This document shows positions 21,295-62,698 of a stretch of DNA of 64,000 bases, piece after piece. Source of the stretch: Candidatus Micrarchaeota archaeon (GTDB taxonomy: Archaea > Micrarchaeota > Micrarchaeia > Anstonellales > Bilamarchaeaceae). The position numbers and the translations under genes are program-made. Position 1 is the stretch's first letter; each line of letters starts with the position of its first letter. The notes under the pieces are model-generated. The model had not been told where the DNA came from. It saw nothing but the letters and a program-made list of their open reading frames with translations, and did not search any database. The stretch lies in NCBI GenBank assembly GCA_016212505.1, contig JACRGB010000028.1, forward strand, positions 9,537 through 73,536, written 5' to 3'.

Positions 21295-21725
21295 TGGTCC
21301 TTCTACGGCAAGTTAGAGAAGAAGATTTCGAAAAGATATTGAATTGGCGGAACGAGCCGCAAGTTAGGAAAAACAGCTTCAATCAAAAAGAAATAAGCCG
21401 TAATGAGCATCTAGATTACTGGCACAAGAGAATAAAGTCTGCGGAGTATGATTTTATCATTAGCCATAATGGAATTGATGTTGGTCTTTTAAGATTGGAT
21501 AAAAGGGAAGAGAAAGCATATGAAGTGAACATAATGATAGATCCCAAACACCAGGGTTTAGGAATTGGAAGTGATGCAATAAAGGAAATCAAAAAAATTG
21601 CAAAGGCCAGGGGCATAAAAAAATTAATTGGACGAGTGAAACATGGGAATGTTGGATCCAATAAGATTTTTGAGAAAAACGAGTTCCAATTGAGATATGT
21701 CGTCTATGAATTGGATATAGAGTGA
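21276..21725 (+). CDS. pseH: GNAT N-acetyltransferase, PseH-like
   Basis: 149-aa ORF. LRQVREEDFEKILNWRNEPQVR and QGLGIG GNAT motifs match the PseH pattern. Overlaps the end of pseI. Confidence 0.7.
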   Translation: MESGEMMVLLRQVREEDFEKILNWRNEPQVRKNSFNQKEISRNEHLDYWHKRIKSAEYDFIISHNGIDVGLLRLDKREEKAYEVNIMIDPKHQGLGIGSDAIKEIKKIAKARGIKKLIGRVKHGNVGSNKIFEKNEFQLRYVVYELDIE

Positions 21726-21729
21726 TAGT

Positions 21730-41483: not shown

Positions 41484-41545
41484 TTAGAACACCGCTATTT
41501 TAGTCGAAGGATACAATTAAATAAACTAATAATAGTAAACGAGTT

Positions 41546-44425: not shown

Positions 44426-44466
44426 CTGGACCTATACTTCTGCAACAGCGATTAGTTTATGTTACC

Positions 44467-46037: not shown

Positions 46038-46061
46038 AGAATCAATCTCATTTTGATAAAT

Positions 46062-47354
46062 TTATTTGCGAACTTTTTCCAAACGATCCATTGTCCCCAT
46101 ATCATGAATGTGCTCATTAGTCTTATATGCGAAAAGTTTTCCCCCACGGACAATAACCGATGGGAGCACTTCCTTATCTAACATAGATACACCGTCGGGA
46201 AAATATTTTAAAATGCTCGGCTCGAAGCAATAGACCCCTGCATTGGAAATATTCTCAAAAACATCACCTTTTTTGGGCTTTCCAAGGAATTTTATGATCC
46301 GGCCATCCGGAGCAAGTTCGAGGATATCCGAGTCATAAGGGTGGCTGCTTTTGTGGACTGTCAGGGTCCCTAAGCCGCATTTTTCCTTGTGATATTTTAT
46401 TAGCTTCTCAAGGTCCATTTCAAGGAGAAGATCCCCATAAACCATGGCGAACGTTTCGTTAGGATCAAGGAATTTTTCGGCTTGCTTGATCGCACCACCA
46501 GTTCCAAGAAGTTCTTTTTCAAAGCAATAGAAGATCTTTACACCAAATTTAGCCCCATCGCCAAAATAAGCCTGGATTTTTTCCCCAAGATACCCTACGC
46601 ACAGGATTATTTCGGTTATCCCATATTTTTTTAGGTGGATTATGATGTGCTCAAGGACAGGTTTTCCCCTGACGAGTATCATTGGTTTTGGGACATTTCG
46701 GGTGTGATGACCAAGCCGGGTTCCAAGCCCGCCTGCAACAATAACCGCTTTCACATTCTTCATATCGCTCATAGGTAGGCTCACCATTAATTTTGCAGCT
46801 TCAAGCAGGTTTTTGCTAACATGATCGGGTTTTGTATTAAGCTTGGATTCACTGTCGATTTGACCGGTTTTTACAAAAATCGTAGTGCAACCAAAGTTTT
46901 TACCCCCTTCAATATCGCGATCATGGTCGCCCACCATAAAGCAATTTTCTTTTGCTATACCAAAGTCTTTTGATGCAGTAATAAGCATGCCTGGTTTTGG
47001 TTTTCGGCAATCACAGATTTTCCGGTATTTTGGATCATTTGCCCCGCTATGCCCTTGCTCCGGATGATGGGGACAATAGTAAACTGCATCAACTTTTGCA
47101 CCTTCTTTTTCCAGAAGTTCAAGAAGAAGGACATTGACTTTCTTCACATCATCCTCGCTGCATAATCCACGGGCTACGACTGGCTGGTTGGTAACAATTG
47201 CCACTTTAAAGCCGTTTTGGTTAAGGAGTCTTATGCCTTCTGCAGCACCTTCAAGAAGCTGAAGCTGCCGTATATCATGAAGAAGGTTAACTTCCTTGTT
47301 TATTGTACCGTCACGGTCAAGTAACGCAAGTCGTGAGCCGGATTCATTTTTCAT
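46062..47354 (-). CDS. bifunctional D,D-heptose-1,7-bisphosphate phosphatase / heptose-1-phosphate nucleotidyl(guanylyl)transferase fusion
   Basis: 430-aa ORF. The N-terminal half has the HAD motifs LDRDGTIN, VTNQ, CPHHP...CDCRKP and VGDHDRD (GmhB). The C-terminal half has VIVAGGLGTRLG plus the nucleotidyltransferase core (HddC-like). Confidence 0.75.
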   Translation of the reverse strand: MKNESGSRLALLDRDGTINKEVNLLHDIRQLQLLEGAAEGIRLLNQNGFKVAIVTNQPVVARGLCSEDDVKKVNVLLLELLEKEGAKVDAVYYCPHHPEQGHSGANDPKYRKICDCRKPKPGMLITASKDFGIAKENCFMVGDHDRDIEGGKNFGCTTIFVKTGQIDSESKLNTKPDHVSKNLLEAAKLMVSLPMSDMKNVKAVIVAGGLGTRLGHHTRNVPKPMILVRGKPVLEHIIIHLKKYGITEIILCVGYLGEKIQAYFGDGAKFGVKIFYCFEKELLGTGGAIKQAEKFLDPNETFAMVYGDLLLEMDLEKLIKYHKEKCGLGTLTVHKSSHPYDSDILELAPDGRIIKFLGKPKKGDVFENISNAGVYCFEPSILKYFPDGVSMLDKEVLPSVIVRGGKLFAYKTNEHIHDMGTMDRLEKVRK

Positions 47355-47396
47355 TATCCATTAATAAGGAAGAAACGGATTAAAAATGGATGAAAA

Positions 47397-48065
47397 TCAC
47401 GGACTAAAACGTTCTTTAAGCAGCAAAATGCAGTCCTTAACCCCATCAATAAGCTGGACTTTGGATGTTCCGCCTCTTTTTGAGTAATTTATAGGAAATT
47501 CGGCAACCTTGAAGCCTTTTTTCACAGATTGGGCAAACATATTGCATTCCAATTCAAAAGTCTGCGAAGTTATTTCTATATTCTTATAAGCTCTTTTCCT
47601 AAAGCCCCACATGCCAGTACAGACATCGCTCACCCATTTTAGGAAAAGCGTGCTTGCACAAAGGGAAATTATCCGGTTTCCAAAGTTATTTGTAAATGAC
47701 ATTGCCCCTTCTTCCATTTTGCCCCGGAACCTAGAACCCATTACAACATCATACTCATTCAAGAGGATAATAATTTTTGGAAAATCCTCAACCGGGTAGG
47801 TAAGATCAACATCTATCATAAGGGCATAATCAGTGTCGATTTCCTTGAATGCTTTTTTTATCGCAACGGCCTTGCCTTTCTGAGTTTCCAGGATTATTTT
47901 GGCGCCCATTTTCTTGGCGATCTCTATGGTTTTGTCCTTGCTAAGGCCGTCAATAACTACGATTTCTGCATCAGGAAGCACCTTTCGAACCTGGTTGATG
48001 GTACTTTCAATTGATTCTTCTTCATTTAGGGTTGGTAAAAGTACTGAAACAGAAGCCATAACCAA
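47397..48065 (-). CDS. GT2 glycosyltransferase, dolichyl/polyprenyl-phosphate sugar synthase-like
   Basis: 222-aa soluble GT2 with VSVLLPTLNEEESI and IDVDL (DxD), and DPM1-like size. Confidence 0.8.
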   Translation of the reverse strand: MVMASVSVLLPTLNEEESIESTINQVRKVLPDAEIVVIDGLSKDKTIEIAKKMGAKIILETQKGKAVAIKKAFKEIDTDYALMIDVDLTYPVEDFPKIIILLNEYDVVMGSRFRGKMEEGAMSFTNNFGNRIISLCASTLFLKWVSDVCTGMWGFRKRAYKNIEITSQTFELECNMFAQSVKKGFKVAEFPINYSKRGGTSKVQLIDGVKDCILLLKERFSP

Positions 48066-48111
48066 TTGATTAACGGGAATCTATAATAAACCATCTTATA
48101 AGATCAGTAGT

Positions 48112-48978
48112 ATGCTTTGGTTTTGGTTAGCAGTAATAGCATCTTTCCTCTGGGCTTGCTCTAACTTAATTGGTAAATACACCTTATTTGACCTTAATAA
48201 AAAGACCATGTACCTTAGCATACTATTTGGTGCAGGGTTTGCGATTCTTGCCACATTATTTTTTCGGATTTCTTTTTCGATCATACCTGTGATTGATGGG
48301 ATATTTTGGGCTGCGGCATTTTATTTTTATACAGAAGGCCTTTTTGAAAGCGAAGTTTCCAAGGCCATAGCACTTCTTTTGACCTTGCCGATATTTGTTG
48401 CGGTAATTTCGCACCTGCTTTTGGGCGAACTTCTAGGAACAATACAGTATGCAGGAATCGTTATTGCAGTAATAGGGGCAATGCTGATTTCAGTTGACTG
48501 GCCAATTTCATTGAAAGGGATAAAATTCAAAAAAGGAGCTATGTTCATGCTGCTTTCAAGCCTCTTATTTTCCACCAGCGATGTTTTGGCTAAATTATCA
48601 CTAAGTTATGTTGATCCGGTTAGCTCAATATTTTTATCCCAGATGACTGCATTTTTCATTGGCTTAATTTTGTTATTCTTATGGAAAAAGGAAATAAAAT
48701 TAGGTTCGGGTTCAGGGAAATTGCTGGGATACGCATTACTTTGTGGCGTACTCTCTTGCGTGGCTGCGTTTCTTTATATTTTTGCATATGATGAGACTCT
48801 AGCATCCCTTGCCGCACCCATTGAAACGACGCAGCCGCTGTTTGTTTTTGTCTTGGCTACGCTAATTAGCATAGTAAAACCAGAATGGTTAAAGGAAAAC
48901 CTTAGTAAAGAGAACCTTGCTTTGAAAATAGTTGCGATGCTACTCCTTATTGCGGGTGTTTGGCTGGTTGTTGGATAA
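48112..48978 (+). CDS. EamA/DMT-family transporter
   Basis: 288-aa ORF with 10 TM helices in two EamA-like halves. Confidence 0.8.
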   Translation: MLWFWLAVIASFLWACSNLIGKYTLFDLNKKTMYLSILFGAGFAILATLFFRISFSIIPVIDGIFWAAAFYFYTEGLFESEVSKAIALLLTLPIFVAVISHLLLGELLGTIQYAGIVIAVIGAMLISVDWPISLKGIKFKKGAMFMLLSSLLFSTSDVLAKLSLSYVDPVSSIFLSQMTAFFIGLILLFLWKKEIKLGSGSGKLLGYALLCGVLSCVAAFLYIFAYDETLASLAAPIETTQPLFVFVLATLISIVKPEWLKENLSKENLALKIVAMLLLIAGVWLVVG

Positions 48979-48992
48979 TTCTTCCATGCTAA

Positions 48993-50240
48993 CTAAGTGC
49001 CTTCCTTCCAGTCGGATAGGTATTTCTTTTGCTCGCCCGTTAATGAATCGATCTTTATTTGCATTGATTCGAGCTGCAATCTTGCAATTTCATTATCAAT
49101 ATTTTCTGGTAAGGTAATTACACTGGAACTTAACTTGCCCTTATTTTTTACAATATATTCACATGCCAAAGCTTGTCCTGCAAAAGAAGTCGCCATAACT
49201 TCGGAAGGATGGCCTTCGGCTGCGCCCAAATTAACAAGCCTACCCTCTGCGCATAAGTAAAGTTTTTTGCCTTCAAGATCATATTCGTCAAGGAATGGCC
49301 GAATTTTCTTTTTCTTTGAATGTTTCTCAAGATATGCGACATCTATTTCAATATCAAAATGACCCGCGTTTGCTAATATCGCGCCATTCTTCATCAACTT
49401 GAAGTGCTCTCCTGCAAGCACATGCTTATCACCAGTGACGCTAAGAAAAATATCCCCGATTTTTGCTGCGTCTTTCATTGGCATAACCAAATAACCATCA
49501 AGAACCGCCTGGAGGGCCCTAAATGGATCTACTTCGGTAACTACCACGCTCGCGCCCATTCCTTTGGCCCTTAGCGCGACACCTTTTCCGCAATCGCCAT
49601 AACCACAAACAACAAATGTTTTTCCTGCAATCAGGGTGTTTGTCGCCCTGAGTATGCCATCAATTGAAGATTGGCCAGTACCATAATAATTATCCAAAAG
49701 ATGTTTTGTTTTATTTTCGTTAACTGCAATTATCGGACATTTTAATTGTTTGTCAGCTTCCATTGCCTTAAGCCTTATGACTCCGGTAGTGGTTTCTTCG
49801 CAACCACCAAGCAGTTTTGTTAGAAGGTCAGTATGTTTGGTATGGATTAGCGTAACCAAATCGCAGCCATCATCAATTGTAATATCGGGTTTTCGCTCGA
49901 GCACCTGCTCCAAAAACTCATAATATTGTTCTTTTGTCTCTCCTTTTATTGCAAAAACAGCAATTCCTTCTTTTGCAAGAGCTGCCGCAACATCATCCTG
50001 GGTAGATAATGGATTGCAGCTTGCAACTGCAACTTTCGCCCCGCCTGCAGCCAGTGTGCGAACCAAAACTGCAGTTTCTTTAGTAACATGAAGCGCCAGT
50101 CCGATAGTAAGCCCCTTGAAAGGTTGTTCTTTCTTAAAGCGCTCCCCTATCGCCATCAATATAGGCATTTTTGCTTCTGCATAGTAAATATTCAGCATTC
50201 CTTGCTCTGACTGAGCCATATCTTTCACTGAGTAGTCCAT
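48993..50240 (-). CDS. ahcY: adenosylhomocysteinase
   Basis: 415-aa ORF with VVCGYGDCGKGVA NAD motif and the EVMATSFAGQ, GRLVNLGAAEGHP signature. Confidence 0.95.
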   Translation of the reverse strand: MDYSVKDMAQSEQGMLNIYYAEAKMPILMAIGERFKKEQPFKGLTIGLALHVTKETAVLVRTLAAGGAKVAVASCNPLSTQDDVAAALAKEGIAVFAIKGETKEQYYEFLEQVLERKPDITIDDGCDLVTLIHTKHTDLLTKLLGGCEETTTGVIRLKAMEADKQLKCPIIAVNENKTKHLLDNYYGTGQSSIDGILRATNTLIAGKTFVVCGYGDCGKGVALRAKGMGASVVVTEVDPFRALQAVLDGYLVMPMKDAAKIGDIFLSVTGDKHVLAGEHFKLMKNGAILANAGHFDIEIDVAYLEKHSKKKKIRPFLDEYDLEGKKLYLCAEGRLVNLGAAEGHPSEVMATSFAGQALACEYIVKNKGKLSSSVITLPENIDNEIARLQLESMQIKIDSLTGEQKKYLSDWKEGT

Positions 50241-50364
50241 AGAATAGGAATTGGAGGGATAGGTTAAAAGTAATTTCGAATTGGTTTTGCTAAATAAATA
50301 AAATTCCTATTGGAATATTTCTTTCAAAAATATATAAATATAGGAATAAACACAAAAAATAACT

Positions 50365-51351
50365 ATGACAGAAACTTTGCGATCAGGACACACGCTTTCA
50401 GCATCTTCAAAGGCCAGAGTAGTGGCAGTTTCTTTGGCAAACATATTGAGGTCAAGAACACCCCAGATATCTCTCATTACAGATTTTGGAAGAGGGGATG
50501 AATCAGTCTACGCAGTAAAATCAGCTGCCCTTGCGGTCAATCCAAAAGTTCAGATAGTAGATATTTGCCATGATGTTCCCTTAGGGAACATACTTGTTGG
50601 CGCTGCAAGATTAGCCAGAAACGTGGCACTTTCCACTGAAGATGGAAAATCAATAGTTTACGTTGCTGTTGTGGATCCGGGAGTTGGAACTGAAAGAAAA
50701 AATATCATAGTTAGGACTCAGAGGGGAAGATATCTGGTAGGACCAGACAATGGAGTACTGTCTCTTGCATTCATAGAGGGAATTGATAAGGTCGTGGAGA
50801 TTACAAACCGCAATTTGACTCTACTCGAACGTGCCGAATCGAATACTTTCCACGGGAAAGACATATTCGCACCAGTTGCAGCCCACATATTAAGAGGAGT
50901 TCCAATTGAAGAATTTGGATCGAAATTGGCTCCGCAGACGTTAGTGAAAATAAGATTAAGTTCACAAAGCAGTACTGTTTCCCGATCTGGTTTCATAGTC
51001 AATGTGGATGGGGTTGGGAGTATCAGAACCAATCTCCCCAACCACGTACCCCCCGAATTCATAGGCAAGGAACTGGGATTTAGGATTAGAGGAAAAGTAA
51101 GAACTTGCGGATCCCGCGGGCAAGAAGAAGAAAAAGGATTTAGCACAGAAGGACGGGCTCGTCTGGTTAGGACTTTTGGAGAAGTGGAATCTGGAGAACC
51201 GGTCCTTATTTTAGGCTCAACTGGGAACATAGACCTTGCAGTGAGAGACACCAGCGCGGCAAGAAGATTCGGTATTGATGCGGAAAGCCTCACATTAGAT
51301 GAAGGATTGCGTCCCGCACTGAAGATAGAGATTACGTTTCCATCTAATTAG
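50365..51351 (+). CDS. SAM hydroxide adenosyltransferase (DUF62, SAM hydrolase family)
   Basis: ISLITDFG, VVDPGVGTER, VGPDNG and FHGKDIFAP motifs. The ATG at 50365 gives a roughly 35-aa extension. An in-frame TTG at 50446 would give a canonical N-terminus. Confidence 0.85.
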   Translation: MTETLRSGHTLSASSKARVVAVSLANILRSRTPQISLITDFGRGDESVYAVKSAALAVNPKVQIVDICHDVPLGNILVGAARLARNVALSTEDGKSIVYVAVVDPGVGTERKNIIVRTQRGRYLVGPDNGVLSLAFIEGIDKVVEITNRNLTLLERAESNTFHGKDIFAPVAAHILRGVPIEEFGSKLAPQTLVKIRLSSQSSTVSRSGFIVNVDGVGSIRTNLPNHVPPEFIGKELGFRIRGKVRTCGSRGQEEEKGFSTEGRARLVRTFGEVESGEPVLILGSTGNIDLAVRDTSAARRFGIDAESLTLDEGLRPALKIEITFPSN

Positions 51352-51392
51352 CAAACTTAATAATTTCTTTTGATTAATCGTTAATCGATATT

Positions 51393-52301
51393 ATGCCCTC
51401 TATTACTTGTTCAGGCTCAATCGCATTGGATACTACCAGAACCCCATTCAAAACCGCAGAGATGGTTCTTGGGGGTGCTGCAAGCTATTTTTCACTATCA
51501 TCTTCATTTTTTGCACCAACCAGCATAGTGAGTGTTGTTGGCGGAGATTTTCCTGATAAATATTGGCAGATTTTAGCAAAGAAAGCAAATATTGAAAGTG
51601 TACAACGCAAAGAAGAAGGGAAAACATTTCATTTTGATTCCACGTTTTCATTTGATCTTTATCATCGCCAGGCCAATAAGACCGAGCTCAATGTTTTGGG
51701 CGAATTCGAGCCAAAACTTGGTAGCGAAGCGGCCAAAAGCGAATTTCTTTATCTTGCCACAATGCCTCCCCAGAAACAGATGGAAGTCATGGTCCAGGCC
51801 AAAAACAAGAAACTGGTCTTTATGGATACCATCGAATTTTACATAAAAACCGAACTCCCGAAAGTCCAGCAGGTAATAACTATGGTTGATGGGGTCGTAC
51901 TCAATGATGCTGAAGCACGGATGCTCACTAATGAATCGAATTTGGTTAAATGCGGTAAGAAAATAGAGGCACTCGGGCCAAAGATCGTGATTATAAAAAA
52001 AGGCGAGCACGGAAGCTTGTTGTTTTTCAAGGGAAAAGTTATCCCGTTTCCTGCATTTCCTTTGGAAGTTGTTGTTGACCCGACAGGTGCAGGCGATGCA
52101 TTTGCTGGTGGTTTAGTGGGTTCATTAGCAAAACAAAATGCAACTAATCCAAGTTTAGAGCAACTAAAAGTTGCGATGGGTTATGCCAATGTCTGCGGAT
52201 CCTTAGCGGTGGAAGATTTTTCAGTGGATAAATTGGTCAGCACAAACAATGCGGAAATAGAAAAAAGGTTTAGGGATTATTGCGAATTGCTCAGAATTTA
52301 G
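51393..52301 (+). CDS. PfkB-family ribokinase-like kinase (possible adenosine/nucleoside kinase)
   Basis: 302-aa ORF with the DPTGAGDAFAGG PfkB signature 2 and an N-terminal GG dipeptide region. Confidence 0.8.
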   Translation: MPSITCSGSIALDTTRTPFKTAEMVLGGAASYFSLSSSFFAPTSIVSVVGGDFPDKYWQILAKKANIESVQRKEEGKTFHFDSTFSFDLYHRQANKTELNVLGEFEPKLGSEAAKSEFLYLATMPPQKQMEVMVQAKNKKLVFMDTIEFYIKTELPKVQQVITMVDGVVLNDAEARMLTNESNLVKCGKKIEALGPKIVIIKKGEHGSLLFFKGKVIPFPAFPLEVVVDPTGAGDAFAGGLVGSLAKQNATNPSLEQLKVAMGYANVCGSLAVEDFSVDKLVSTNNAEIEKRFRDYCELLRI

Positions 52302-52315
52302 TTATATAGAAAATG

Positions 52316-53818
52316 TCAGCTAGCAGGGTGACGGATATATTGTTCGCATAGTTCTATGCATTCCCGAACATGACTTCGTACTTCTTCCAGTTTGTGCTCC
52401 ATACGCATAATGGCAAGCGCGACAGCTTGCTGAAATGAAGCAGGGCCAATCTCATCAAGTTTCAGAAGACAACCTTGCAAAACATCTTTAGCAGAGGAAA
52501 TGTCGCCTCCGGATTTTGCAAACTCGAGAATAGCCTTTACTGATCTTGCTATATTGAATAGGTCTTCACTGCTTTGGATAGTAGCTATCACCAAAGGAAG
52601 AGCTACCATGCGGACGTGCTTATCTTCACTGAATAATAATGAATGCGCAGCTGCTATTCGAATACCTTCATACCTGCTGGATAAGCATCTGAGCAAAATT
52701 GGCGTGCAAATGGCCTTATCCTCTATAGTTCCTGCTTCCACCAAAAGCATGGCCATAGAAGTTGGAACAGCTTCATCTAAAGAATATGCTAAACCCTTGC
52801 GCAGTATCGGCAATTGAGAAGATATGTTTTCATTGTTGGAAAGTGCAGCGTCCAGTGCACCTAGTGCGTGTCTTATTGCATTAACATTGAAATAAACATT
52901 TTTGCGATTTGTATCAGCTAGCGCCTTATCTATCGCTCCTCCCAGTGCTTCAAATGAAGATGAAATTGAAATTCCTGCTCGGGCAGTGTGTTCAAGGGTT
53001 AACGCGATGCAGCTAACAGTCCAGCTATAATCATCATATAACGCATTAGTCAAACTCTCTAAATGAGAAGCAGAAACACCATCTTCGATTTGCGAAAGGC
53101 CTGTCGCAGCAGCGGACCGTGTTTCAGACTTTTCATGAGAAAGATATTTGACTAATTCTTTTATTCCTTGTTCATTAAAGAATTGATTTGAGCAGGCATC
53201 TCTTCCAAGTGCTATAGACGCTGCACTCCTCACAACATGGCCCATATCAAACCTAGGATCATCATAAATTAATACAGCTCCGAGTTCTTCGATTGCCTGA
53301 ACATAAAGCGGATCAGCTTTCTTTGCAAATTTTAATATGAAACCAAGGGATCTTGCTGCATAAACCTTGGTAAATTCTCCGTCATCGGAATCAAAGGCTG
53401 ATCTTAAAAGACGGACAAGCGGCAGAACTGCTTCTTTTAGGTCATGACCTGCTTCGGCAAGCTCAGCCAACGAATCAATGGCGTTTTCTCTAACACTTTG
53501 GATGTGTTCATTAGACAAAGCAGGATGTGCACGAATTGTTTCTTCATTCCAGGATAATGAATTGATAATTAACTGGAGGTTTTCTGGTTTTGAATCTAAT
53601 AGAGGAATAACGCGATAGCCAGTTGAAAGGTAAAACTCACGGATGCCCCTGTGCCTATGCAACATTCCTTCTCCTGATGGAGGAACAGAACCAAAACCAT
53701 GGCCTCCACCAGTCGCAGGATCACTCTTGCCACCTTTGTCTATTTTACCCATTGTAAGCATTAAAATCAGTAATAAGGTACTCATTTGAAGCTTATAAAT
53801 CTTTCCATTTATGGCCAC
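52316..53818 (-). CDS. HEAT/ARM-repeat protein, function unknown
   Basis: About 500-aa helical-repeat ORF with recurring A-x-x-L/ALG hairpin repeats and a hydrophobic N-terminus. Lies 24 nt downstream of metK on the same strand. Confidence 0.5.
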   Translation of the reverse strand: MAINGKIYKLQMSTLLLILMLTMGKIDKGGKSDPATGGGHGFGSVPPSGEGMLHRHRGIREFYLSTGYRVIPLLDSKPENLQLIINSLSWNEETIRAHPALSNEHIQSVRENAIDSLAELAEAGHDLKEAVLPLVRLLRSAFDSDDGEFTKVYAARSLGFILKFAKKADPLYVQAIEELGAVLIYDDPRFDMGHVVRSAASIALGRDACSNQFFNEQGIKELVKYLSHEKSETRSAAATGLSQIEDGVSASHLESLTNALYDDYSWTVSCIALTLEHTARAGISISSSFEALGGAIDKALADTNRKNVYFNVNAIRHALGALDAALSNNENISSQLPILRKGLAYSLDEAVPTSMAMLLVEAGTIEDKAICTPILLRCLSSRYEGIRIAAAHSLLFSEDKHVRMVALPLVIATIQSSEDLFNIARSVKAILEFAKSGGDISSAKDVLQGCLLKLDEIGPASFQQAVALAIMRMEHKLEEVRSHVRECIELCEQYIRHPAS

Positions 53819-53842
53819 AATATGGTTTTGAATGAAAAAGCT

Positions 53843-55034
53843 TCAAAGTCCTGCTTCCTTTCGAAGTTTGTCAGCCATATCTGTCTTTTCCCAGGTAAAA
53901 TCAGGGTCTTCCCTTCCGAAATGGCCATAAGCTGCGGTTTTACGGTAGATTGGCCGCAATAGGTCAAGTTTCTTTATCATATCTGCGGGTTTGAACGAGA
54001 AGTTTTCTGCAATGAGTTTTTCAATTTTTTCTGTTGGGATTTTCTCGGTTCCACGCGTATCGACAAAAACAGAAAGCGGCTTTGCAACACCAATTACAAA
54101 GGAAATCTGAACTTCGCATTCATCAGCAATTCCTGCTGCAACAATGTTTTTGGCAACATATCTTGCCATATAAGCTCCCGAACGATCAACTTTCGACGGG
54201 TCCTTGCCAGAAAATGCTCCGCCTCCATGATGGCCTCGCCCTCCATAAGTATCAATAATTATTTTTCGTCCTGTAACGCCAGTATCAGCTGCAGGCCCAC
54301 CCAAAACAAATTTGCCAGTTCCGTTTATGTGGACTATTGTTTTGCCATCGAACCATTGCCCGCAAACAGGCTTAATGACATGTTCGAGAATGTCGGATTT
54401 GATTTTTTCGTTAGGGACATCAGGATCGTGCTGCGCTGCAATAACAACAGTATGCACACGCACCGGTTTATGATCCACATACTCGATCGTCACCTGGGTT
54501 TTGCCATCCGGCCTTAAGTATGCAATGGTGCTGTTTTTCCGGACTTCCGCAAGCCTTTGGGCTAATTTATGCGCAAGCATTATTGGAAGGGGCATAAGTT
54601 CTGGAGTTTCGCGGCACGCATAACCAAACATAATTCCCTGATCACCTGCGCCCTGCTCGTGCTCAGCGCTGGTGTTCACCCCTTGCGCGATGTCCGGCGA
54701 CTGCTCAGTAATAGAAGCTATAACCCCTGATCCACGATAATCAAATAAGTATTCTGGCTTGTTATAACCGATCTCTTTTATGACGTTGCGGATAACTTTC
54801 TGGAATTCCACATAGCCTTTGGTAGTTATTTCACCCATAACCGCAACTAAGCCAACAGTGACTGCAGTTTCAACTGCAACACGGGAATGCTTATCCTGCT
54901 TGAGCAACTCATCAAGAATTGCATCAGAAATCTGATCGCACACTATGGATACCAAAAGATAGTTATCTTATGGTTTTATCCGGGTGCCCTTCAGTAACTG
55001 ATTCGGAACTAAAGAGGTAGTTTTTAGACGACAT
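53843..55034 (-). CDS. metK: S-adenosylmethionine synthetase, bacterial/eukaryal MetK type, interrupted by a 31-nt insert
   Basis: Segment 1 (55034-54976) encodes [20 protein letters not shown]. Segment 2 (54944-53843) encodes [11 protein letters not shown]...GAGDQG...[19 protein letters not shown] and the full MetK. Removing 54945-54975 restores a 386-aa ORF. Confidence 0.85.
54945..54975 (-). other. 31-nt intervening sequence with bulge-helix-bulge-like fold (candidate archaeal mRNA intron)
   Basis: Contains an in-frame TAA. Two 3-nt bulges (AAA, AUA) are separated by the 4-bp helix GGAU/AUCC. The inner stem is 10 bp with an AACU loop. Symmetric cuts after bulge nucleotide 2 excise exactly 31 nt. 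Confidence 0.5.
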
Positions 55035-55146
55035 AATAATCAGGATAGGATCTGCGGCATAAAATATAAACATTGGTGAAAAAAATATTCCGATTAGAAT
55101 AAAAAAGGCATATAAACACACCCAGACAAAAGGCAAATAGAAAAAC

Positions 55147-56511
55147 ATGTTAGGCTGGCGAATCCTTAAAGAGGGGGACTATACTGTCGATCTTCCACAG
55201 ATAAGTAGCGACGAGGAAGAACTAATTGAAAGGGCTCAGGAATCATTTAAGGAGGCAGCGCGATTTAGGAGCGTCAATAGCCGGGATGAAAGTGCCAGCC
55301 TCATACGTGAAATCGTAATAAAAATTTCGGAAAAGGAGCAGGTCGCACTTGACCATGACCAGCTAGAATATCTAAGCAAGGTAGCACTTTTGCATATTTA
55401 CGGGTTTGCTTTTATCGACAAGCTCCTTGAAGATGAGGAAATCGAGGAAATCAGCATCATCGGCCCCCAACGGCCAGCCTATGTTTATCTGAGGAACAAG
55501 GGATGGAAAAAGGTCAACGCCGCTTTTGTTGATGAAAAATGCATAGCAGATGTAATAAATAAAATGGCCCGAAACCTAGGAAGGCATATAACAGTGCAGA
55601 ACCCGCGGCTCGATGCCATGCTTCCTAATGGATCACGGCTCCATGCCTCGCTCCCTCCGATATCGGTAGGCGAAATTACCATAAGAAAATTTCGGAGCAA
55701 CCCTTTTTCGCCAGCTGAGCTTGCCCAAAGCGGCATAGTAAGCAGCGATGCCTTGGCAATGCTCTCGCTTCTTATGCAGTCAGACAGCTCGGTAATAATT
55801 GGGGGGAATACTGCAAGCGGGAAGACGACCACCCTCAATGCCCTGTTTTCTTTCATACCATATAATGAACGAATCCTGATCAGCGAAGAAACCCCGGAAA
55901 TCAACATACCACACGACCATCAGCTTCGTTTAGTTGCAAATAAGGACCTTGGTATCAGCCTCAAGGATCTGGTTTATGATTCATTACGGATGAGGCCGGA
56001 CCGGATGATTGTCGGCGAAGTCCGCAATAAGCAGGAAGTGGAAGCGCTCTTTGATGTCTTGATGGCAGGACAGGCAAGAGGATCCTATGCAACGTTCCAC
56101 GCACAAAGCGTGAACGAGGCATTAGGAAGAATCGAAAGCTTTGGAATAAGCAAAAGCGACCGCGCGAGCATGGACTGCATTGTAATACAAAGAAGGATGC
56201 TGGTTTATGAGCCTGCAAAGAAGAAAAATATTGAAGTGCGAAGAATAATCGAAATTGCGGAAATTAGCGAGAACGGAACGCCAAAAATAATCTATAAGGA
56301 TGGCACGCTGGCAAAAAACGCTTTTGTGGAAAAACTTTCGCAAAAGCTTGGGATAAAGGAAAAGCAACTGCAGCAGGAAATGCAGAAACGTAAGAAGACC
56401 ATTCTTTCTGGTAATTTTGGCAAATCAGCGGCATTAGCTGGAAAGGGCGACTACGATAGTTTCTACAGGATGGTCCAGAAAGAATTTTACGGTGCAGATT
56501 TTAATGATTGA
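55147..56511 (+). CDS. type II/IV secretion-family ATPase (archaeal FlaI/ArlI / pilus assembly ATPase-like)
   Basis: 454-aa ORF with Walker A GGNTASGKTTTLNAL, Walker B/Asp box RPDRMIVGEVR and the His box ATFHA. Confidence 0.85.
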   Translation: MLGWRILKEGDYTVDLPQISSDEEELIERAQESFKEAARFRSVNSRDESASLIREIVIKISEKEQVALDHDQLEYLSKVALLHIYGFAFIDKLLEDEEIEEISIIGPQRPAYVYLRNKGWKKVNAAFVDEKCIADVINKMARNLGRHITVQNPRLDAMLPNGSRLHASLPPISVGEITIRKFRSNPFSPAELAQSGIVSSDALAMLSLLMQSDSSVIIGGNTASGKTTTLNALFSFIPYNERILISEETPEINIPHDHQLRLVANKDLGISLKDLVYDSLRMRPDRMIVGEVRNKQEVEALFDVLMAGQARGSYATFHAQSVNEALGRIESFGISKSDRASMDCIVIQRRMLVYEPAKKKNIEVRRIIEIAEISENGTPKIIYKDGTLAKNAFVEKLSQKLGIKEKQLQQEMQKRKKTILSGNFGKSAALAGKGDYDSFYRMVQKEFYGADFND

Positions 56512-58090
56512 AAAACTGGAAAAAATCATTGGTATGTTTCCGGAAACGAGCATGAAGTTTGGCTCGGCTAATTCTATCAAAAATCTTGGCCTTGAAATAA
56601 ATCCTGGCAAGTACCTATCATTCTCGATAATGGTTTCGATAGTCATAGCAGCGATTTTCCTCCTTGCACTTATTGTAATGGAAAATTATTCGCTCCTGAT
56701 GGGCGTGCCGGTAGCCTTCCTACTCATGTTCGCATTCTTTCTCTATCTTCCAAAAATCGAATACAAAAAAGTCGAGCAGGAAATCGAGATCGATCTCCCC
56801 TTTTTCCTTAGGACAACAGGAATCTTCATGGAGATGGGTATAAGCTTTGAAAGAGCACTTGAAATAGCAGCCTATGGAAATAGTGCGCTTTCAAAAACAA
56901 TAACCCGGCTTCTCGGGCAGGTGAAAATGGGAGTGGGTGTCCATACGGCGTTTTCCTCATTTTCATCTTCATTTAACTCATTAATCATAAAACGCGCGGT
57001 CGCCCAACTGCTTCTTGTCTATGAAACCGGCGGAAGCGGGCAGCAGATAAAGAAACTTGCCGATGATATGCTTGCAGCACAGCAGCATAGGCTAAAGGAC
57101 TACTCTGCAAAAAGCTCGATGTTCGGGCTGATATTCATAATGTCGAGTGCCATAATCCCGACCTTTTTCCTAATCTACATAACAATAGGCAAGGGGGTTT
57201 TTGGCAGCAATATAACAAAGGTCGAAGTTGCAATAGCGTTCCTTTTGGTTTTCCCGCTCATCAGTTTCTTCATAACCCTCCTGGCAAGGTCATTTATGCC
57301 ATCCAACCCTTTTACAAATCAGAAAAAATCAAATCCGATAATTTTCATATTGATTTTGGTCCTGGTAATGGGAGCGCTCTTATTGCCGGAATACCAGTTG
57401 ATCATCACCGCCATAGGTATCGCCATTGCGATGCTACTGGCCTACCGCAGTTACATCGCGGAAAAACGGACCGAAGAAATCGAGGATGCCCTTCCGGATG
57501 GTGTTTTTGCAATTGCCGGGATGCCAAAGGCGACCAGGTTAGACAAAATATTTGACATAATGGAAAAATCAGGCCATGGCGCGCTTTCAAAAGAAGCTGA
57601 AAAGTCCAAAAAGCAGATAGTGATGAATGTCAACCCGGAGGAAGTGCTTGATGACCTTTGGGCCAGGAACCACTCGCAGATGCTTAAGCGCTTTTCAATA
57701 ATGATGAAGCAGATGATAAAGACCAATTCGCTCGATAAGATGAATTTTGTTGCCGAGGATATGGTACAGGCCACAGGGGTAAAGCGCGAGCGGCAGAACA
57801 TAATGGCGATGCAGAAGTATACGCTCATCGTCGGTGCTGCGATAATACCTGGTATCCTCAAGATCGCACTAAGTTTGCTGCAGAACCTATCTGGACTCAT
57901 GGGGCAGGGGCCAGCGGCAGGCGAATCGATAGCATTTTCATTTACCCTAATACCAGCCTACCTAGTCATCTATTCGGCAATATCCTCAGTCTCAATAGCA
58001 GATGGGAGCGGGAAAAAATCCGATGAGTTTGTCTATTTTGCCATAATGAGCGTGCTGGGACTGGTTGTTTTTAATTTAGTTTCTTTTTGA
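56492..58090 (+). CDS. FlaJ/TadC-like (T2SS-F family) polytopic platform protein
   Basis: 532-aa ORF with two repeated cytoplasmic helical domains, each followed by TM helices. Overlaps the ATPase gene by 20 nt. Confidence 0.7.
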   Translation: MQILMIEKLEKIIGMFPETSMKFGSANSIKNLGLEINPGKYLSFSIMVSIVIAAIFLLALIVMENYSLLMGVPVAFLLMFAFFLYLPKIEYKKVEQEIEIDLPFFLRTTGIFMEMGISFERALEIAAYGNSALSKTITRLLGQVKMGVGVHTAFSSFSSSFNSLIIKRAVAQLLLVYETGGSGQQIKKLADDMLAAQQHRLKDYSAKSSMFGLIFIMSSAIIPTFFLIYITIGKGVFGSNITKVEVAIAFLLVFPLISFFITLLARSFMPSNPFTNQKKSNPIIFILILVLVMGALLLPEYQLIITAIGIAIAMLLAYRSYIAEKRTEEIEDALPDGVFAIAGMPKATRLDKIFDIMEKSGHGALSKEAEKSKKQIVMNVNPEEVLDDLWARNHSQMLKRFSIMMKQMIKTNSLDKMNFVAEDMVQATGVKRERQNIMAMQKYTLIVGAAIIPGILKIALSLLQNLSGLMGQGPAAGESIAFSFTLIPAYLVIYSAISSVSIADGSGKKSDEFVYFAIMSVLGLVVFNLVSF

Positions 58091-58588
58091 ATGTTTATTA
58101 TGGACGCGATAACACTCCTTATCCAGTCGGTAAGCTTGCCCTATTTAAACCAGATAAATATGCTCCTGGACCTTGATTACATTTATGTACTGCTGGTACT
58201 GGGCCTGATCGCTCTAGGGGAACGAAGAAATGATAAACGTGCCAAGATCCTAACCTCTATAGTCCTTGCCATCATAGTGGGATTTGCCATAAAGCACATA
58301 ATTGCCGAGCCGCGGCCCTGCATTGGAAAGGAGTTTTGCCCAAAGGACTATTCGTTTCCGAGCCTTCATGCCACCATTGCATTTGCCCTTATGACGGGAT
58401 TTTTGAATAAGAAAAATTATGCCTGGTATTTGTTATTTGCCATATTTGTGGGCTTTAGCAGGATAAATTTCGGGGTCCATACGTTTATTGATGTTGCAGG
58501 GGCACTTCCGATTGCACTGATCTCCTACTACGTAGTGGATATTTTATGGTCGAAATTCATAAAAGAGGGGAAAGGGGACCGAAGGTAA
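58091..58588 (+). CDS. PAP2-family (polyprenyl-)phosphate phosphatase
   Basis: 165-aa ORF with KHIIAEPRP, SFPSLHA and SRINFGVHTFIDV, the three PAP2 motifs. Confidence 0.8.
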   Translation: MFIMDAITLLIQSVSLPYLNQINMLLDLDYIYVLLVLGLIALGERRNDKRAKILTSIVLAIIVGFAIKHIIAEPRPCIGKEFCPKDYSFPSLHATIAFALMTGFLNKKNYAWYLLFAIFVGFSRINFGVHTFIDVAGALPIALISYYVVDILWSKFIKEGKGDRR

Positions 58589-58597
58589 AAGAGACAG

Positions 58598-59170
58598 ATG
58601 GTAAAGGAGATAGGCATGGAAAAAGAAACTGAAAGGCAGTTATTTCACATTGGAGTTGGGCTCTTAGCGCTGCTGCTACTCCTTAGCCATGGGAGGACTT
58701 TTATGATAGCTGCGGTCTTTTTCATAATAATTTTTGGCACAATTTTCATTAACCTAAAATTACTTGGAAAAAAAGTGCCCATAATCGACTGGTTCGAGGA
58801 AAAGTTCGAACGGGAACATATCAGGCTGCCGGGATGGGGCTCAGCCTGCTACGCGATGGGCGTCCTTATCCCGTTGGTTTTCCTTAATGACATAAGTAAA
58901 ATCAGTGCGGTGATAATGATCCTGGCCGTTGGAGATGGATTATCCACTCTTGTGGGTAAGAGGGGCAAGATGAAAATCCCTTACAACCAGAATAAAACAA
59001 TCGAAGGCTCGCTCGCCATGTTCGCCTGTTCCTTAGTATCATATTATTTCGTAGGATGGCTCGCAATACCGCTTAGCATACTTGCAGCAATTGTCGAAAG
59101 TATGCCGCTTGTTGATGATAATTTATCAATACCGATTGCATGCACCATTGCATTAATGCTGATTAGGTGA
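58598..59170 (+). CDS. CTP-dependent polyprenol (dolichol) kinase-like membrane protein
   Basis: 190-aa polytopic ORF with VGDGLSTLVGKRGK, KTIEGS and DDNLSIP motifs of the dolichol/phytol kinase-CdsA superfamily. Confidence 0.55.
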   Translation: MVKEIGMEKETERQLFHIGVGLLALLLLLSHGRTFMIAAVFFIIIFGTIFINLKLLGKKVPIIDWFEEKFEREHIRLPGWGSACYAMGVLIPLVFLNDISKISAVIMILAVGDGLSTLVGKRGKMKIPYNQNKTIEGSLAMFACSLVSYYFVGWLAIPLSILAAIVESMPLVDDNLSIPIACTIALMLIR

Positions 59171-59174
59171 TCGC

Positions 59175-59969
59175 ATGATAATTTTGTTCGTTCCAAAAAA
59201 TATCGCCAGTGCCAATATTGCAAAAAATTTGATTGAAAAGTTTGGTTTTGTTAAGCAGGCAGGAAATGAGTGGCAAAAAGGCGAATCGCACCTTATCCAG
59301 ATTGAGAGTGAAAGCGTGCTCGATGTTCCCTGTGATTTTGATGATACGATAATCGTGTTAAGCACCCATAAAAGCAAAATACCTGGAAAAATGCTCACCT
59401 GCCATTATCCTGGAAACTGGGGCAATGCAGAAATGAAAGGCGAACCCAAAACACTAAATACCGCACCCGCAACTTTGTTGAAAATAATAGCGCGGAATAT
59501 GAAAAAGGAGAGCGAGAAAATCGGTTGGCCATTCTCACTTGAGGCAGACCATCACGGGCCAACTGGAAAAAGCCCGATAATTTATGTAGAAATTGGGGCC
59601 GAAGAAGCTGAATGGTCTGATGAATTGGCCGGGAAAGCAGTTGCAAATGCAGTGGTGGAGAGCATCAGTGAGTACGATAGAAAAAGCAAAACGCTAAGCT
59701 CAACACTGGAAACAGTTTTTTGTGTTGGTGGGGGGCATTATCCTGCAGCATTCACAAAACTCATCCTGGAAAGCGACCTTGCCATTGGCCATATTGCACC
59801 AAAATACGTGATTGATGAGATGGATGAAGAAATGTTCAGGCAGGGAATAGGAAAAAATGTTGAAAAAGTTTCGAAAGTGTTGATAGATAAAGAAGGGACA
59901 AATAGCAAACAAAAGAAGAAGATCGAGGAATTTGCAAATAAATTTGGTGTTGTTTTTGAATATGTTTGA
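59175..59969 (+). CDS. dtdA: D-aminoacyl-tRNA deacylase, archaeal DTD2 type
   Basis: 264-aa ORF with HYPGNWG, EADHHGPT, YVEIGAEEAEW, GGGHY and AIGHIAPKY, collinear with archaeal DtdA. Confidence 0.85.
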   Translation: MIILFVPKNIASANIAKNLIEKFGFVKQAGNEWQKGESHLIQIESESVLDVPCDFDDTIIVLSTHKSKIPGKMLTCHYPGNWGNAEMKGEPKTLNTAPATLLKIIARNMKKESEKIGWPFSLEADHHGPTGKSPIIYVEIGAEEAEWSDELAGKAVANAVVESISEYDRKSKTLSSTLETVFCVGGGHYPAAFTKLILESDLAIGHIAPKYVIDEMDEEMFRQGIGKNVEKVSKVLIDKEGTNSKQKKKIEEFANKFGVVFEYV

Positions 59970-59995
59970 TTTTTTCTTTATGCTGATTCTAGATA

Positions 59996-61852
59996 CTAAA
60001 AATCTGCCCGTTTATAGGAATCACTAGGAAGTTCATCCAAAAATCTTGACGGGAACTGCTCTTCCATGCCATAAAACCTTCCGCTTTGCCGACAAAAGCT
60101 CATGAATAATTCCTCTTTGGCACGCGAGATAGCAACATAAAAGAGCCTCCGCTCCTCTTCCACATCCTGCGAGCGGCTAGATGGAAGTGCACCTTCGGAT
60201 AAGCCAATTACAAAAACAACATCCCATTCCAATCCTTTTGCCTGGTGGATCGTAGATAGGATAACATCGCAGTTCTTGTGCTTTGGATGCTCAGTCGAAA
60301 GGGCAAATGAAGAGAGGAATTCAGTTGTTGATTCGAATCTTGTTGCGGCACTTATAAGGGCATCAACATCAGGTTTTCGATCGGTCGAATCATCGAATGT
60401 CTCTTCCAAATAAGTGCTATAGAAGCCGGAGTAAAAATCATCGATCATCCTTGCGGCATTGGCCGGGGTAGCTTCTTGGCTGGCAAAAAGTTTTTCGACC
60501 AAACCGGATGCAAGGCCTTTTTTATCAAGCTTCCTTATTGCGCTTATTATATCGGCTCTTGATGAAATTGAGTCGATCATATCCATTACCCGCTTCTCGC
60601 CAATTCCGGGAAATAGGGTAAATAACCTAAGCAAGGCGCTGCTGTCCCGGGGATTTTCATAGGCACGAACCAGTGAAAGCAGGTCCTTTATATGGGCCTG
60701 CTCAAAAAATTTCACCCCGCCGCGCAGATCATAATCAATTCCCCGTTTTGATAATTCGACTTCGAGTTCAGAGCAGAGGTAAACTGAGCGGAAAAGGATC
60801 CCTATTTTCTTGCCCGTTTTGAGCCGCGTCTCGACTAGTTCTAGGATGCGCATAGTTTCCTCATGGGGGTCATTGCTTTCCAAAATGACCGGATGAAGGC
60901 CAGGCGCCTTAGTAGCCAGCAGTTTCTTATCAATTTTTTGCTGGCTGTTTTTTATACAGTAGTTTATCACATCCACAATCAGGGAATGGCTCCGGTAGTT
61001 ATTGGAAAGGAAGAAAACCTTGGCCCGGTATTTATCCTTAAAATTAAGCATGTTGGAAATTTCAGCACCGCGAAAGGAATATATGCTCTGGGCATCATCC
61101 CCAACAACCATAAGGTTATCACCCTTGCCATGGAGAAGGGAGATCGTATCCTCCTGGACCCGGTCGCTATCCTGAAATTCATCTACAAGTAGGTGGCGAT
61201 AATAATTCTGGTAGTGTTCCCTCACCAGCTTGTTGTCCCGCAGGATGATGTGGCAAAAATAAAGCAGATCATCAAAATCCACTGCACCATTTTCCCGTTT
61301 TATTTTCCCATACAGGCTGCTAATTTCCTCGATCTGCACAAGATGGCGCTCCAGATAGGAAAGTTCGCGGTCTGAACGTATGACATCCGAAAGGGAGCAC
61401 ATTTTTATTTTTGATAATGAAATTATCCTTGATATTGGTGATGCTTGGGATTTTTTTGCCTTCTCATCAAATTTCCTTAAAATACGCAGTAGCAAGGACA
61501 AGGAATCCTGCTCATCCAAGATCGTAAAATTATTTTCTATCCCAACAGTTCTTCCGTGCCTTCTTAGGATCATGTTTGCAAAATGATGAAACGTGCCTGC
61601 AGTAATTTTTCTTGCATCCGGGCCAATAAGGTGCTCTGCGCGGTTTATCATTTCCTTTGCAGCCTTATTTGTAAACGTAAGGAGCAGGATGTTCTCGGGC
61701 TTTTGCCCGCTTTCCATAATATGGCACAGGCGATAGATGAGAACCCTGGTTTTTCCAGAACCTGGCCCGGCTACAACTAGGCTAACCCCATCCCCGTTCT
61801 GGACAACGGCTCTCTGCTCGCTATTGAGCTCTTTTTCATAGTCTACGGCCAT
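59996..61852 (-). CDS. UvrD/PcrA/Rep-family ATP-dependent DNA helicase
   Basis: 618-aa ORF with VVAGPGSGKTRVL (motif I), LLVDEFQDS (II), SFRGA, NYRS and VAISRAKE (VI). Confidence 0.9.
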   Translation of the reverse strand: MAVDYEKELNSEQRAVVQNGDGVSLVVAGPGSGKTRVLIYRLCHIMESGQKPENILLLTFTNKAAKEMINRAEHLIGPDARKITAGTFHHFANMILRRHGRTVGIENNFTILDEQDSLSLLLRILRKFDEKAKKSQASPISRIISLSKIKMCSLSDVIRSDRELSYLERHLVQIEEISSLYGKIKRENGAVDFDDLLYFCHIILRDNKLVREHYQNYYRHLLVDEFQDSDRVQEDTISLLHGKGDNLMVVGDDAQSIYSFRGAEISNMLNFKDKYRAKVFFLSNNYRSHSLIVDVINYCIKNSQQKIDKKLLATKAPGLHPVILESNDPHEETMRILELVETRLKTGKKIGILFRSVYLCSELEVELSKRGIDYDLRGGVKFFEQAHIKDLLSLVRAYENPRDSSALLRLFTLFPGIGEKRVMDMIDSISSRADIISAIRKLDKKGLASGLVEKLFASQEATPANAARMIDDFYSGFYSTYLEETFDDSTDRKPDVDALISAATRFESTTEFLSSFALSTEHPKHKNCDVILSTIHQAKGLEWDVVFVIGLSEGALPSSRSQDVEEERRLFYVAISRAKEELFMSFCRQSGRFYGMEEQFPSRFLDELPSDSYKRADF

Positions 61853-61876
61853 TAGCTCATCTTCTAGTTCATTGGC

Positions 61877-62698
61877 TTATTTCTTACTCATTTCTTGAGC
61901 GGATTTTACAAGCCTGGAACTTCGTTCCAGATTGATGGAATTTCTAATTCCATCAATTAGGTCAACCAGATTATCCCGAATTTTAAATAGCACTGGGTTT
62001 TTTAGAAAAGCGATTTCTGCATTTTCATTTATTTGCGCGGTTTCCTTGGATAAAGGGATTGAGCCAAGATAAGGGATGTCGAATGAATTGGCAATATTTT
62101 CTGCATTGCTACCGAAAATTTCACCAGACATATTTTCCAACAAACCCAAAATCAGCACATTGAGTTTTTTCGCCATATTTAACGCGCGGGTTGTGTCCAA
62201 AATCGCTTCTTTAGTTGGGGTTGTGACTAAGAGCAATGTGTCCAGGGCAGCTAGTTGCATTGCTGAAAGCGGGACATCAGCAGTTCCCGGAGGAAGGTCG
62301 ATAACCAGGTAGTCCAGATCGCCCCAATTAACAGATTGCAAAAAATCAAGAAGCATCCGGTGCTTTATCGGGCCCCGGATAATTATGGGGTCTTCCTTTC
62401 CTGGGTTAAATAGTGCGGTTGAAACGATTTTTACTCCGTTATGGACTACTGGTTCTAGCTTTGCACTTCCACCCTGCTCACGAACCAACATTGAATTTAC
62501 CGACAAGAATTTAGGAACATTTGGGCAATCGATATCAGCATCTACCAGTCCAACTTTGTAGCCTTTTGCAGCCAATGAATATGCAACATTGACAGCGACA
62601 AAAGTTTTCCCCACCCCGCCCTTGCCACTATGCACTCCGATCTTGAACATTTTTAGTTTGCTAAGTGAATTTTTTTGATCTAGAAAAGGATTTTCCAT
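61877..62698 (-). CDS. Mrp/NBP35-family P-loop ATPase (Fe-S cluster carrier-like)
   Basis: 273-aa ORF with the deviant Walker A SGKGGVGKT, DADIDCPN and DLPPGT. Confidence 0.85.
   Translation of the reverse strand: MENPFLDQKNSLSKLKMFKIGVHSGKGGVGKTFVAVNVAYSLAAKGYKVGLVDADIDCPNVPKFLSVNSMLVREQGGSAKLEPVVHNGVKIVSTALFNPGKEDPIIIRGPIKHRMLLDFLQSVNWGDLDYLVIDLPPGTADVPLSAMQLAALDTLLLVTTPTKEAILDTTRALNMAKKLNVLILGLLENMSGEIFGSNAENIANSFDIPYLGSIPLSKETAQINENAEIAFLKNPVLFKIRDNLVDLIDGIRNSINLERSSRLVKSAQEMSKK

Follow-up and report, generated by a model that had tools for sequence, protein, structure and literature searches.

A candidate bulge-helix-bulge intron within the coding sequence of a micrarchaeal metK gene

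In a 64,000-nt stretch of contig JACRGB010000028.1 from a Candidatus Micrarchaeota archaeon (referred to below as the window), the metK gene for S-adenosylmethionine (SAM) synthetase is interrupted by a 31-nt insert that lies inside the GHPDK motif of the encoded protein. We propose, with a probability of about 0.7 judged from the sequence, that this insert represents an intron of the bulge-helix-bulge (BHB) type within the coding sequence (CDS) of a bacterial-type metK and that it is spliced by the endonuclease EndA and the ligase RtcB. It would be a recent gain, because no relative has the insert. Also probable, though made with slightly less assurance, is the wider claim that metK, an essential metabolic gene, has recently acquired a true intron that EndA splices, and that this is the first BHB intron in a CDS outside crenarchaeal cbf5. 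An earlier note on this DNA had read the insert as a BHB intron. The archaeal host, the precise insertion, the fold, the cut rule and the intact gene all support that reading, and from them we infer cleavage and ligation and hence the function of the intron.

An insert inside the GHPDK motif

The metK gene is located on the minus strand and consists of the following parts.

54976 to 55034, minus strand: metK exon 1 (ATG...GGG CAC CCG GAT AA), 19 codons plus the first 2 nt of a Lys codon; the N terminus is identical or near-identical to that of 119 relatives.
54945 to 54975, minus strand: candidate BHB intron of 31 nt, AACCAUAAGAUAACUAUCUUUUGGUAUCCAU, missing from all aligned relatives and present in a separate Logan contig; its removal restores the 386-aa frame.
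53843 to 54944, minus strand: metK exon 2 (A GTG TGC GAT CAG...stop), the third base of K20 followed by V21 to L386.
55063 to 55070, minus strand: TATA-like box TTTATATT, about 29 to 36 nt upstream of ATG 55034, read by eye (scanning for promoters was limited to sigma-70 sites of bacteria).

The sequence and the list of open reading frames (ORFs) show that the frame of exon 1 starts at ATG 55034 and runs through GGG CAC CCG GAT AAA ACC ATA AGA to a TAA stop inside the insert. The VCDQISDA sequence is encoded in a different frame, which begins at GTG 54943 and remains open for 366 codons to position 53843. When 55034-54976 is joined to 54944-53843, the result is a CDS of 1161 nt for a 386-aa MetK. 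In a DNA alignment with four intronless relatives, the insert appears as a single clean 31-nt insertion between GAY AAR (the Lys of GHPDK) and NTN TGC. It is ambiguous by 1 nt at the junction and has no target-site duplication: deletion of 54975-54945 or of 54974-54944 results in the same spliced product, and other placements fail. Positions 54975-54945 are used here because the BHB cut sites select them.

Gene callers start this gene at GTG 54943. Their product, P0001 (366 aa), carries the N, M, and C domains of Pfam S-AdoMet_synt (precomputed matches) and is the sole truncated entry found alongside the relatives of this protein. If the insert were not removed, the protein would either lack the GHPDK motif or be cut inside it; the His and Asp residues of this motif belong to the active site of MetK, as established for the Escherichia coli enzyme. 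The position of the TATA-like box would fit a leaderless or short-leader transcript beginning at exon 1.

The spliced protein has 119 relatives with 78 to 85% identity, all of them full-length and uninterrupted (384 to 395 aa, nearly all 386 aa). The named ones come from Candidatus Micrarchaeota, Bilamarchaeaceae, or Bilamarchaeum (order Anstonellales, DPANN archaea). The enzyme is a MetK of the bacterial/eukaryotic type, and its alignment with the E. coli MetK structures covers residues 5-386. All 128 columns that are invariant among the relatives are kept, and differences are seen at only 2 of the 66 columns with at least 95% conservation (L292I and Y302F, both conservative). Four residues are unique to this lineage, a number that 24% of the relatives equal or exceed. 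The rest of metK is free of other lesions across 366 codons. No interrupted metK is seen among the matches listed for GTDB genomes, which do not include the window's own genome.

These results bear out the description of the gene in the earlier note. The alignment with relatives agrees that metK is split within the GHPDK/CDQISD motif, the joined CDS has the canonical spacing expected from deleting 54975-54945, and the full conservation of both flanks, taken there as an argument against a decaying pseudogene, extends to every invariant column. The comparison with metK of related genomes that the note had proposed shows the 31 nt to be absent in all 119.

Fold of the pre-mRNA and predicted splicing

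The predicted RNA structure around the insert comprises the following elements.

54982 to 54987, minus strand: 5' strand of the outer helix h, GCACCC (exon 1), pairing with 54943-54938.
54978 to 54981, minus strand: 5' strand of the central 4-bp helix H, GGAU (exon 1), with pair probabilities of 0.97 to 0.999 to AUCC at 54950-54947.
54975 to 54977, minus strand: 5' bulge AAA, with the predicted cut between 54976 and 54975; the pairing probability is 0.002 to 0.003 for 54976 and 54975 and 0.33 for 54977.
54951 to 54974, minus strand: inner helix h', ACCAUAAGAU / AUCUUUUGGU, 10 positions with 9 pairs and one U×U mismatch; the loop is AACU (54964-54961).
54947 to 54950, minus strand: 3' strand of the central helix H, AUCC (intron), from the fold and the pair probabilities.
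54944 to 54946, minus strand: 3' bulge AUA, with the predicted cut between 54945 and 54944; the pairing probability is 0.0 for all three bases.
54938 to 54943, minus strand: 3' strand of the outer helix h, GUGUGC (exon 2, codons Val-Cys), pairing with 54987-54982.

The minimum free energy (MFE) structure obtained with RNAfold for positions 54925-55000 has -22.5 kcal/mol (z = -3.68), and none of 200 shuffled sequences folds as well. Its elements follow the tRNA-like order h-H-B-h'...h'-H-B-h. The motif has the make-up of an hBHBh' element (B standing for a bulge): two 3-nt bulges on opposite strands, a 4-bp helix between them, an inner stem, and an outer helix with 5 of its 6 positions paired. 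If both bulges are cut behind their second base, the rule given in PMC2738675, exactly 54975-54945 is removed, so the symmetric excision of precisely 31 nt claimed earlier holds under this rule. The helix and bulge coordinates given before are likewise correct save for one, since positions 54943-54940 read GUGU and not GUGC.

The outer helix can be drawn in a gap-free register (G54987-C54938, C86-G39, A85-U40, C84-G41, C83×U42, C82-G43), which contains 5 Watson-Crick pairs and one mismatch. Because this register exists, the central helix is paired with a probability of at least 0.97, and the bulge bases flanking the cuts are essentially never paired, the modeled RNA can present itself as a strict 3-4-3 hBHBh' motif. 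This strict form is the one needed even by EndA types of narrow specificity (PMC3239211). The GUG codon in the outer helix was considered as an adaptation to pairing, a claim that cannot be upheld because 17 of 116 relatives also have Val directly behind GHPDK. The MFE structure also shows further pairing between the exons, CUGA (54994-54991) with UCAG (54935-54932) and CAG with CUG at the ends. This extra pairing is supported by ACU as the Thr codon of the single intron-bearing sequence; in the four relatives aligned, the codon is ACA, ACG, or ACC.

In the proposed mechanism, GGAU of exon 1 and AUCC of the intron would form the central helix of the pre-mRNA, leaving AAA and AUA as bulges. The 10-position stem of the intron itself would serve as the inner helix, and GCACCC of exon 1 with GUGUGC of exon 2 as the outer one. 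EndA would then cut past the second base of both bulges, and an RtcB-type ligase would join ...GGAUAA to AGUGUGC..., remaking the Lys codon AAA and the invariant motif and thus yielding a normal 386-aa SAM synthetase. The predicted spliced junction is CCGGAUAA|AGUGUGCGAU, and a circularized intron would have the junction GGUAUCCAU|AACCAUAAG; an intronless allele would read GGATAAAGTGTGC.

The probability of a coincidence was estimated by simulation as a conditional question: with the boundaries fixed by homology, how often do the cut sites of a full hBHBh' element fall exactly there? For random 31-mers at random metK sites this frequency is 2.5e-5. It is 1.75e-4 when the 24-nt hairpin is kept while its 7 flanking bases and the insertion site are randomized, and 4.4e-3 when only the 7 flanking bases are random and the true site is used.

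Arguments against splicing and alternative explanations

Several observations weigh against splicing of the insert. It is carried by one genome only, all aligned relatives being without it, and no homologous intron that would allow covariation to be assessed was found in the relatives, the window, or JGI metagenome contigs. In the MFE structure, the outer helix consists of GCAC paired with GUGU (one G·U), and CC remains unpaired, which turns the 3' site into a 2×3 internal loop. The two unpaired C residues had been described in the earlier note and match this structure; the description did not include the gap-free register, which is slightly more stable locally (-15.4 versus -14.4 kcal/mol) and 2.4 kcal/mol worse in the full 76-nt context. 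A gene for EndA or RtcB was found neither in the window (64 kb) nor in its Logan extensions (16 kb). A search of the window allowing 3 mismatches matched only the locus itself and so gave no second copy of the intron, and the 44 matches of the hairpin core to JGI metagenome contigs all have unrelated flanks, about as many as chance would give for 18 specified bases. The search for other BHB-interrupted CDSs, also suggested before, found none in the ~80 kb of this genome that were covered. A loose BHB pattern has ~500 matches in the window and ~430 in Markov shuffles; such patterns are frequent by chance, and therefore the geometry alone is not evidence. Even a permissive BHB pattern with an ORF-fusion filter gives 125 matches, nearly all of them at ordinary gene borders or in out-of-frame ORFs. 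Window-wide BHB scans with and without this filter, whose numbers of matches were rated as no higher than in shuffles, were too permissive to serve as a source of further introns and nominated no candidates.

The alternative that survives best is a recent pseudogene, in which a hairpin-forming insert has inactivated metK. The BHB would then be coincidental, or the insert would be a stray, unspliced intron-like element; SAM would be obtained elsewhere, and the organism would possibly be host-dependent. DPANN archaea often lose biosynthetic genes, and the confinement of the insert to one genome is what such an event would look like. A fresh disabling insertion would also leave the remaining gene intact, which is a further point against splicing. 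The dS relative to the nearest available DNA relatives is saturated, which makes dN/dS silent on recent history and leaves room for a recent relaxation of selection. However, the probability that the boundaries of the insert would match the BHB cut sites by chance is 2.5e-5 to 4.4e-3. No second lesion has accumulated in the 366 codons, the 128 invariant residues are in place, and metK is intact in 119 of 119 relatives. The neighboring methyl-cycle genes and all others checked are intact as well: about 60 other ORFs of the window either match Pfam families over their full length or are without signs of disruption, so that the genome as a whole is not in decay. A recent pseudogene is, on balance, unlikely.

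Translational recoding appears very improbable, whether ribosomes were to change to the +1 frame at AGA UAA C (54968-54962) or to hop over the insert. A +1 shift after AGA, just ahead of the in-frame UAA, would formally join both frames, and the insert is a hairpin within a CDS, as are bypass elements. However, such a shift would place 10 additional residues (TIRNYLLVSI) within the invariant GHPDK|VCDQ active-site motif, an extension seen in no relative, and the P-site re-pairing from AGA to GAU is absent. A programmed, prfB-like +1 frameshift was rejected as a formal join only, with a product that is not colinear with its homologs, and the position of AGA UAA C is judged to be coincidental. 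For programmed bypassing of the gene 60 or byp kind, the take-off triplet AAA and the landing triplet AUA do not match, and the stop codon comes three codons after take-off instead of directly after it; with both features missing, this candidate was rejected as well.

Equally improbable is a split gene, in which a 23-aa peptide and a 366-aa protein translated from GTG 54943 would be made separately and then assemble. Split genes occur in DPANN archaea, GTG 54943 could act as a start codon, and gene callers built P0001 from it. However, the break falls inside the GHPDK active-site motif and not at a domain boundary, and no Shine-Dalgarno-like sequence is found ahead of the GTG or TTG. Separate translation would also leave the exact restoration by 31 nt and the BHB geometry unexplained.

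The least probable of these alternatives, an assembly or sequencing artifact that would place in the sequence 31 nt absent from the true genome, could be suspected, as the source is a metagenome assembly. The locus is also present, with the identical 31 nt, in the Logan assembly of run SRR12113407. No publication on this run turned up. The Logan contig spans window positions 17971-61937, and over the 18,095 nt compared (43843-61937) it differs by only one single-nucleotide polymorphism (SNP), at 45896, and therefore represents a separate assembly. The insert is neither a duplication nor an inversion of the flanking sequence; it is non-repetitive and structured, which is atypical of assembly errors. 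No intronless or spliced 386-aa version of the identical sequence was found in a protein collection of 5.8 billion clusters. On the compared strand, the SNP reads T in the window and G in the Logan contig; it lies inside a gene for an SIS-domain protein (45441-46037) and hints at strain microheterogeneity.

A self-splicing group I or II intron, whose ribozyme core alone takes hundreds of nucleotides, or a miniature inverted-repeat transposable element or insertion sequence, which would bring terminal inverted repeats, target-site duplication, and multiple copies, was rejected for an insert that has only 31 nt and no Rfam match, is single-copy in the window, and lacks a target-site duplication.

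Host and genomic neighborhood

The host is an archaeon. This is confirmed by the relatives of its MetK, which belong to Micrarchaeota and Bilamarchaeaceae, and by the window's gene content, which includes genes for a proteasome alpha subunit that bears its N-terminal signature, for T2SSE and T2SSF as a pilus pair, and for a D-aminoacyl-tRNA deacylase of the archaeal type. The metK gene belongs to a methyl-cycle neighborhood (48993-55034, minus and plus strands), in which it is followed downstream by these genes.

52316 to 53818: HEAT/Arm-repeat protein, 500 aa.
51393 to 52301: PfkB-family kinase.
50365 to 51351: SAM_HAT-family protein (PF01887/PF20257).
48993 to 50240: S-adenosylhomocysteine hydrolase (AhcY).

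To our knowledge, EndA is universal in archaea. The three-unit, epsilon2-type EndA is widespread in Micrarchaeia, with 1416 matches, the best 120 of which are 368 to 406 aa long; none of them is tied to this genome. The epsilon2 EndA of ARMAN-2, PDB entry 4FZ2, cuts both strict and relaxed BHBs (PMC3239211), and its structure is described in PMC12397907. No tRNA genes or Rfam families were detected in the window, the locus, or the 16 kb of flanking Logan contigs (L129 and L130).

Three further places were considered as split genes and rejected. According to Pfam, each ORF of the overlapping pairs 28095-28805/28754-29440 and 37161-37868/37834-38772 is a complete gene of its own. In L129, positions 7763-9510 encode a 339-aa ORF without a Pfam match and a 247-aa stand-alone B3/4-domain protein, which overlap by 16 nt and look like distinct genes, the latter with a plausible ATG at 8807. 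The B3/4 domain of this protein is related to the editing domain of PheRS-beta.

Divergently from metK, the plus strand encodes a 454-aa ATPase of the T2SSE family and a 532-aa T2SSF membrane protein at 55147-58090, which resemble the pair found in archaeal type IV pili or archaella. A weak match to Peptidase_A24 (prepilin peptidase) is seen at 10370-11221. A large surface-glycan region (18084-23502, more widely ~9000-47400) contains many glycosyltransferases, epimerases, a flippase, and an AMP-binding enzyme. It includes a set of the nonulosonic-acid type, with a Polysacc_synt_2 dehydratase, a DegT aminotransferase, NeuB, a GFO/IDH oxidoreductase, and a CTP_transf_3 cytidylyltransferase. Near the start of the window (~1660-2095; L129 11075-11510), a small DUF2283/DUF4258 gene pair resembles a toxin-antitoxin system. 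Its neighbors are the gene for a Translin-like protein (2108-2659) and, in tandem, two SPFH/Band-7 paralogs (2698-4223).

Two other hairpins are found in the window. A perfect 11-bp hairpin, ATTGGAAATTG GATA CAATTTCCAAT, occupies 17971-17996 in the 384-nt intergenic region between the divergent genes 16252-17700 (minus strand) and 18084-19067 (plus strand). The Logan contig ends exactly at this hairpin, and the palindrome probably broke the Logan assembly. A long, imperfect, AT-rich hairpin at 41510-41572 has about 16 pairs, including G·U, and -15.9 kcal/mol on the minus strand. It bridges the genes 40488-41483 (minus strand) and 41546-43447 (plus strand) and overlaps the start of the latter.

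Implications

If the insert is spliced, metK would be the second protein-coding gene family with a BHB intron inside the reading frame. It would follow that the tRNA-splicing machinery can serve as a general mRNA-splicing system in archaea, that introns of the tRNA type still invade protein-coding genes, here one of bacterial ancestry, and that intron gain is ongoing. The insertion appears young, because more than 100 close relatives are without the intron. It would offer a rare snapshot of intron birth, in which the exon flanks can be compared before and after the event. It is conceivable, and rather far-fetched, that splicing efficiency gates the production of SAM synthetase and thereby couples methyl metabolism to the tRNA-splicing machinery.

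The case also matters for genome annotation. Gene callers shortened this metK to 366 aa, and it would be lost to filters that remove pseudogenes. A systematic search of DPANN genomes for frame-restoring BHBs might reveal more cases.

Comparison with known systems

Splicing of HAC1 and XBP1 by Ire1 resembles the proposed splicing of metK in that an mRNA is cut at paired motifs independently of the spliceosome, joined by RtcB or a tRNA ligase, and shifted in frame by the removal (26 nt in XBP1). In contrast to the metK motif, the Ire1 sites are twin stem-loops and not a BHB, the nuclease is a different one, and the system is eukaryotic. The bypass elements of T4 gene 60 and of Magnusiomyces mitochondria (byps) are, similarly to the metK insert, short (27 to 55 nt), stop-containing hairpin inserts that are absent from homologs. 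However, these elements work at the ribosome and depend on take-off and landing codons that match, whereas the triplets in metK are unmatched and its geometry fits an endonuclease substrate.

Archaeal tRNA introns, including those at non-canonical positions in ARMAN-2 (Ca. Micrarchaeum; PMC3239211), have the hBHBh' motif in common with the metK insert, and in both the exon supplies the 5' strand of the central helix. The 31 nt are within their range of 11 to 175 nt, and the lineage has the broad-specificity epsilon2 EndA. The host of the candidate metK intron is, in contrast, an mRNA, with no tRNA body to aid recognition. The HVO_1309 intron of Haloferax volcanii (PMC7714728) is an mRNA substrate of an archaeal EndA, as is proposed for the candidate described here, and it has been verified in vivo and in vitro. 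It is located in a 5' untranslated region (UTR), where its removal is not needed for the ORF, whereas the metK insert lies in the coding frame.

The closest known counterpart is the intron of the cbf5 pre-mRNA, reportedly described by Watanabe in 2002. It is found in Desulfurococcales and Sulfolobales, has 33 to 39 bp in several species, and lies in the catalytic motif, mostly with a relaxed BHB motif (PMC2738675; Yokobori 2009). For the cbf5 introns, the predicted cut separates the second residue of the bulge from the third (PMC2738675). According to a survey from 2020, the BHB introns of mRNAs consist of cbf5, the only one inside a reading frame, and one 5'-UTR case (PMC7714728), in agreement with the earlier note, which had named cbf5 of Crenarchaeota as the precedent. 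Full-text searches of the literature, including that after 2020, gave no BHB introns within coding sequences beyond cbf5. The two introns are alike in being short, bounded by a BHB, and placed in the coding frame within a catalytic motif, in following the same cut rule, in removal by the tRNA-splicing endonuclease, which is predicted for metK, and in a pattern of gain and loss. They differ in that the metK candidate occupies a different gene in a different phylum (Micrarchaeota, DPANN, versus TACK), can adopt the strict 3-4-3 form, and occurs in one genome instead of whole orders. Membership of the insert in the cbf5 intron lineage, which is placed at the catalytic Asp codon of cbf5, was rejected, as the gene is metK and the host a member of Micrarchaeota. 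The metK insert would thus be an intron of the same kind as that of cbf5 and not its homolog.

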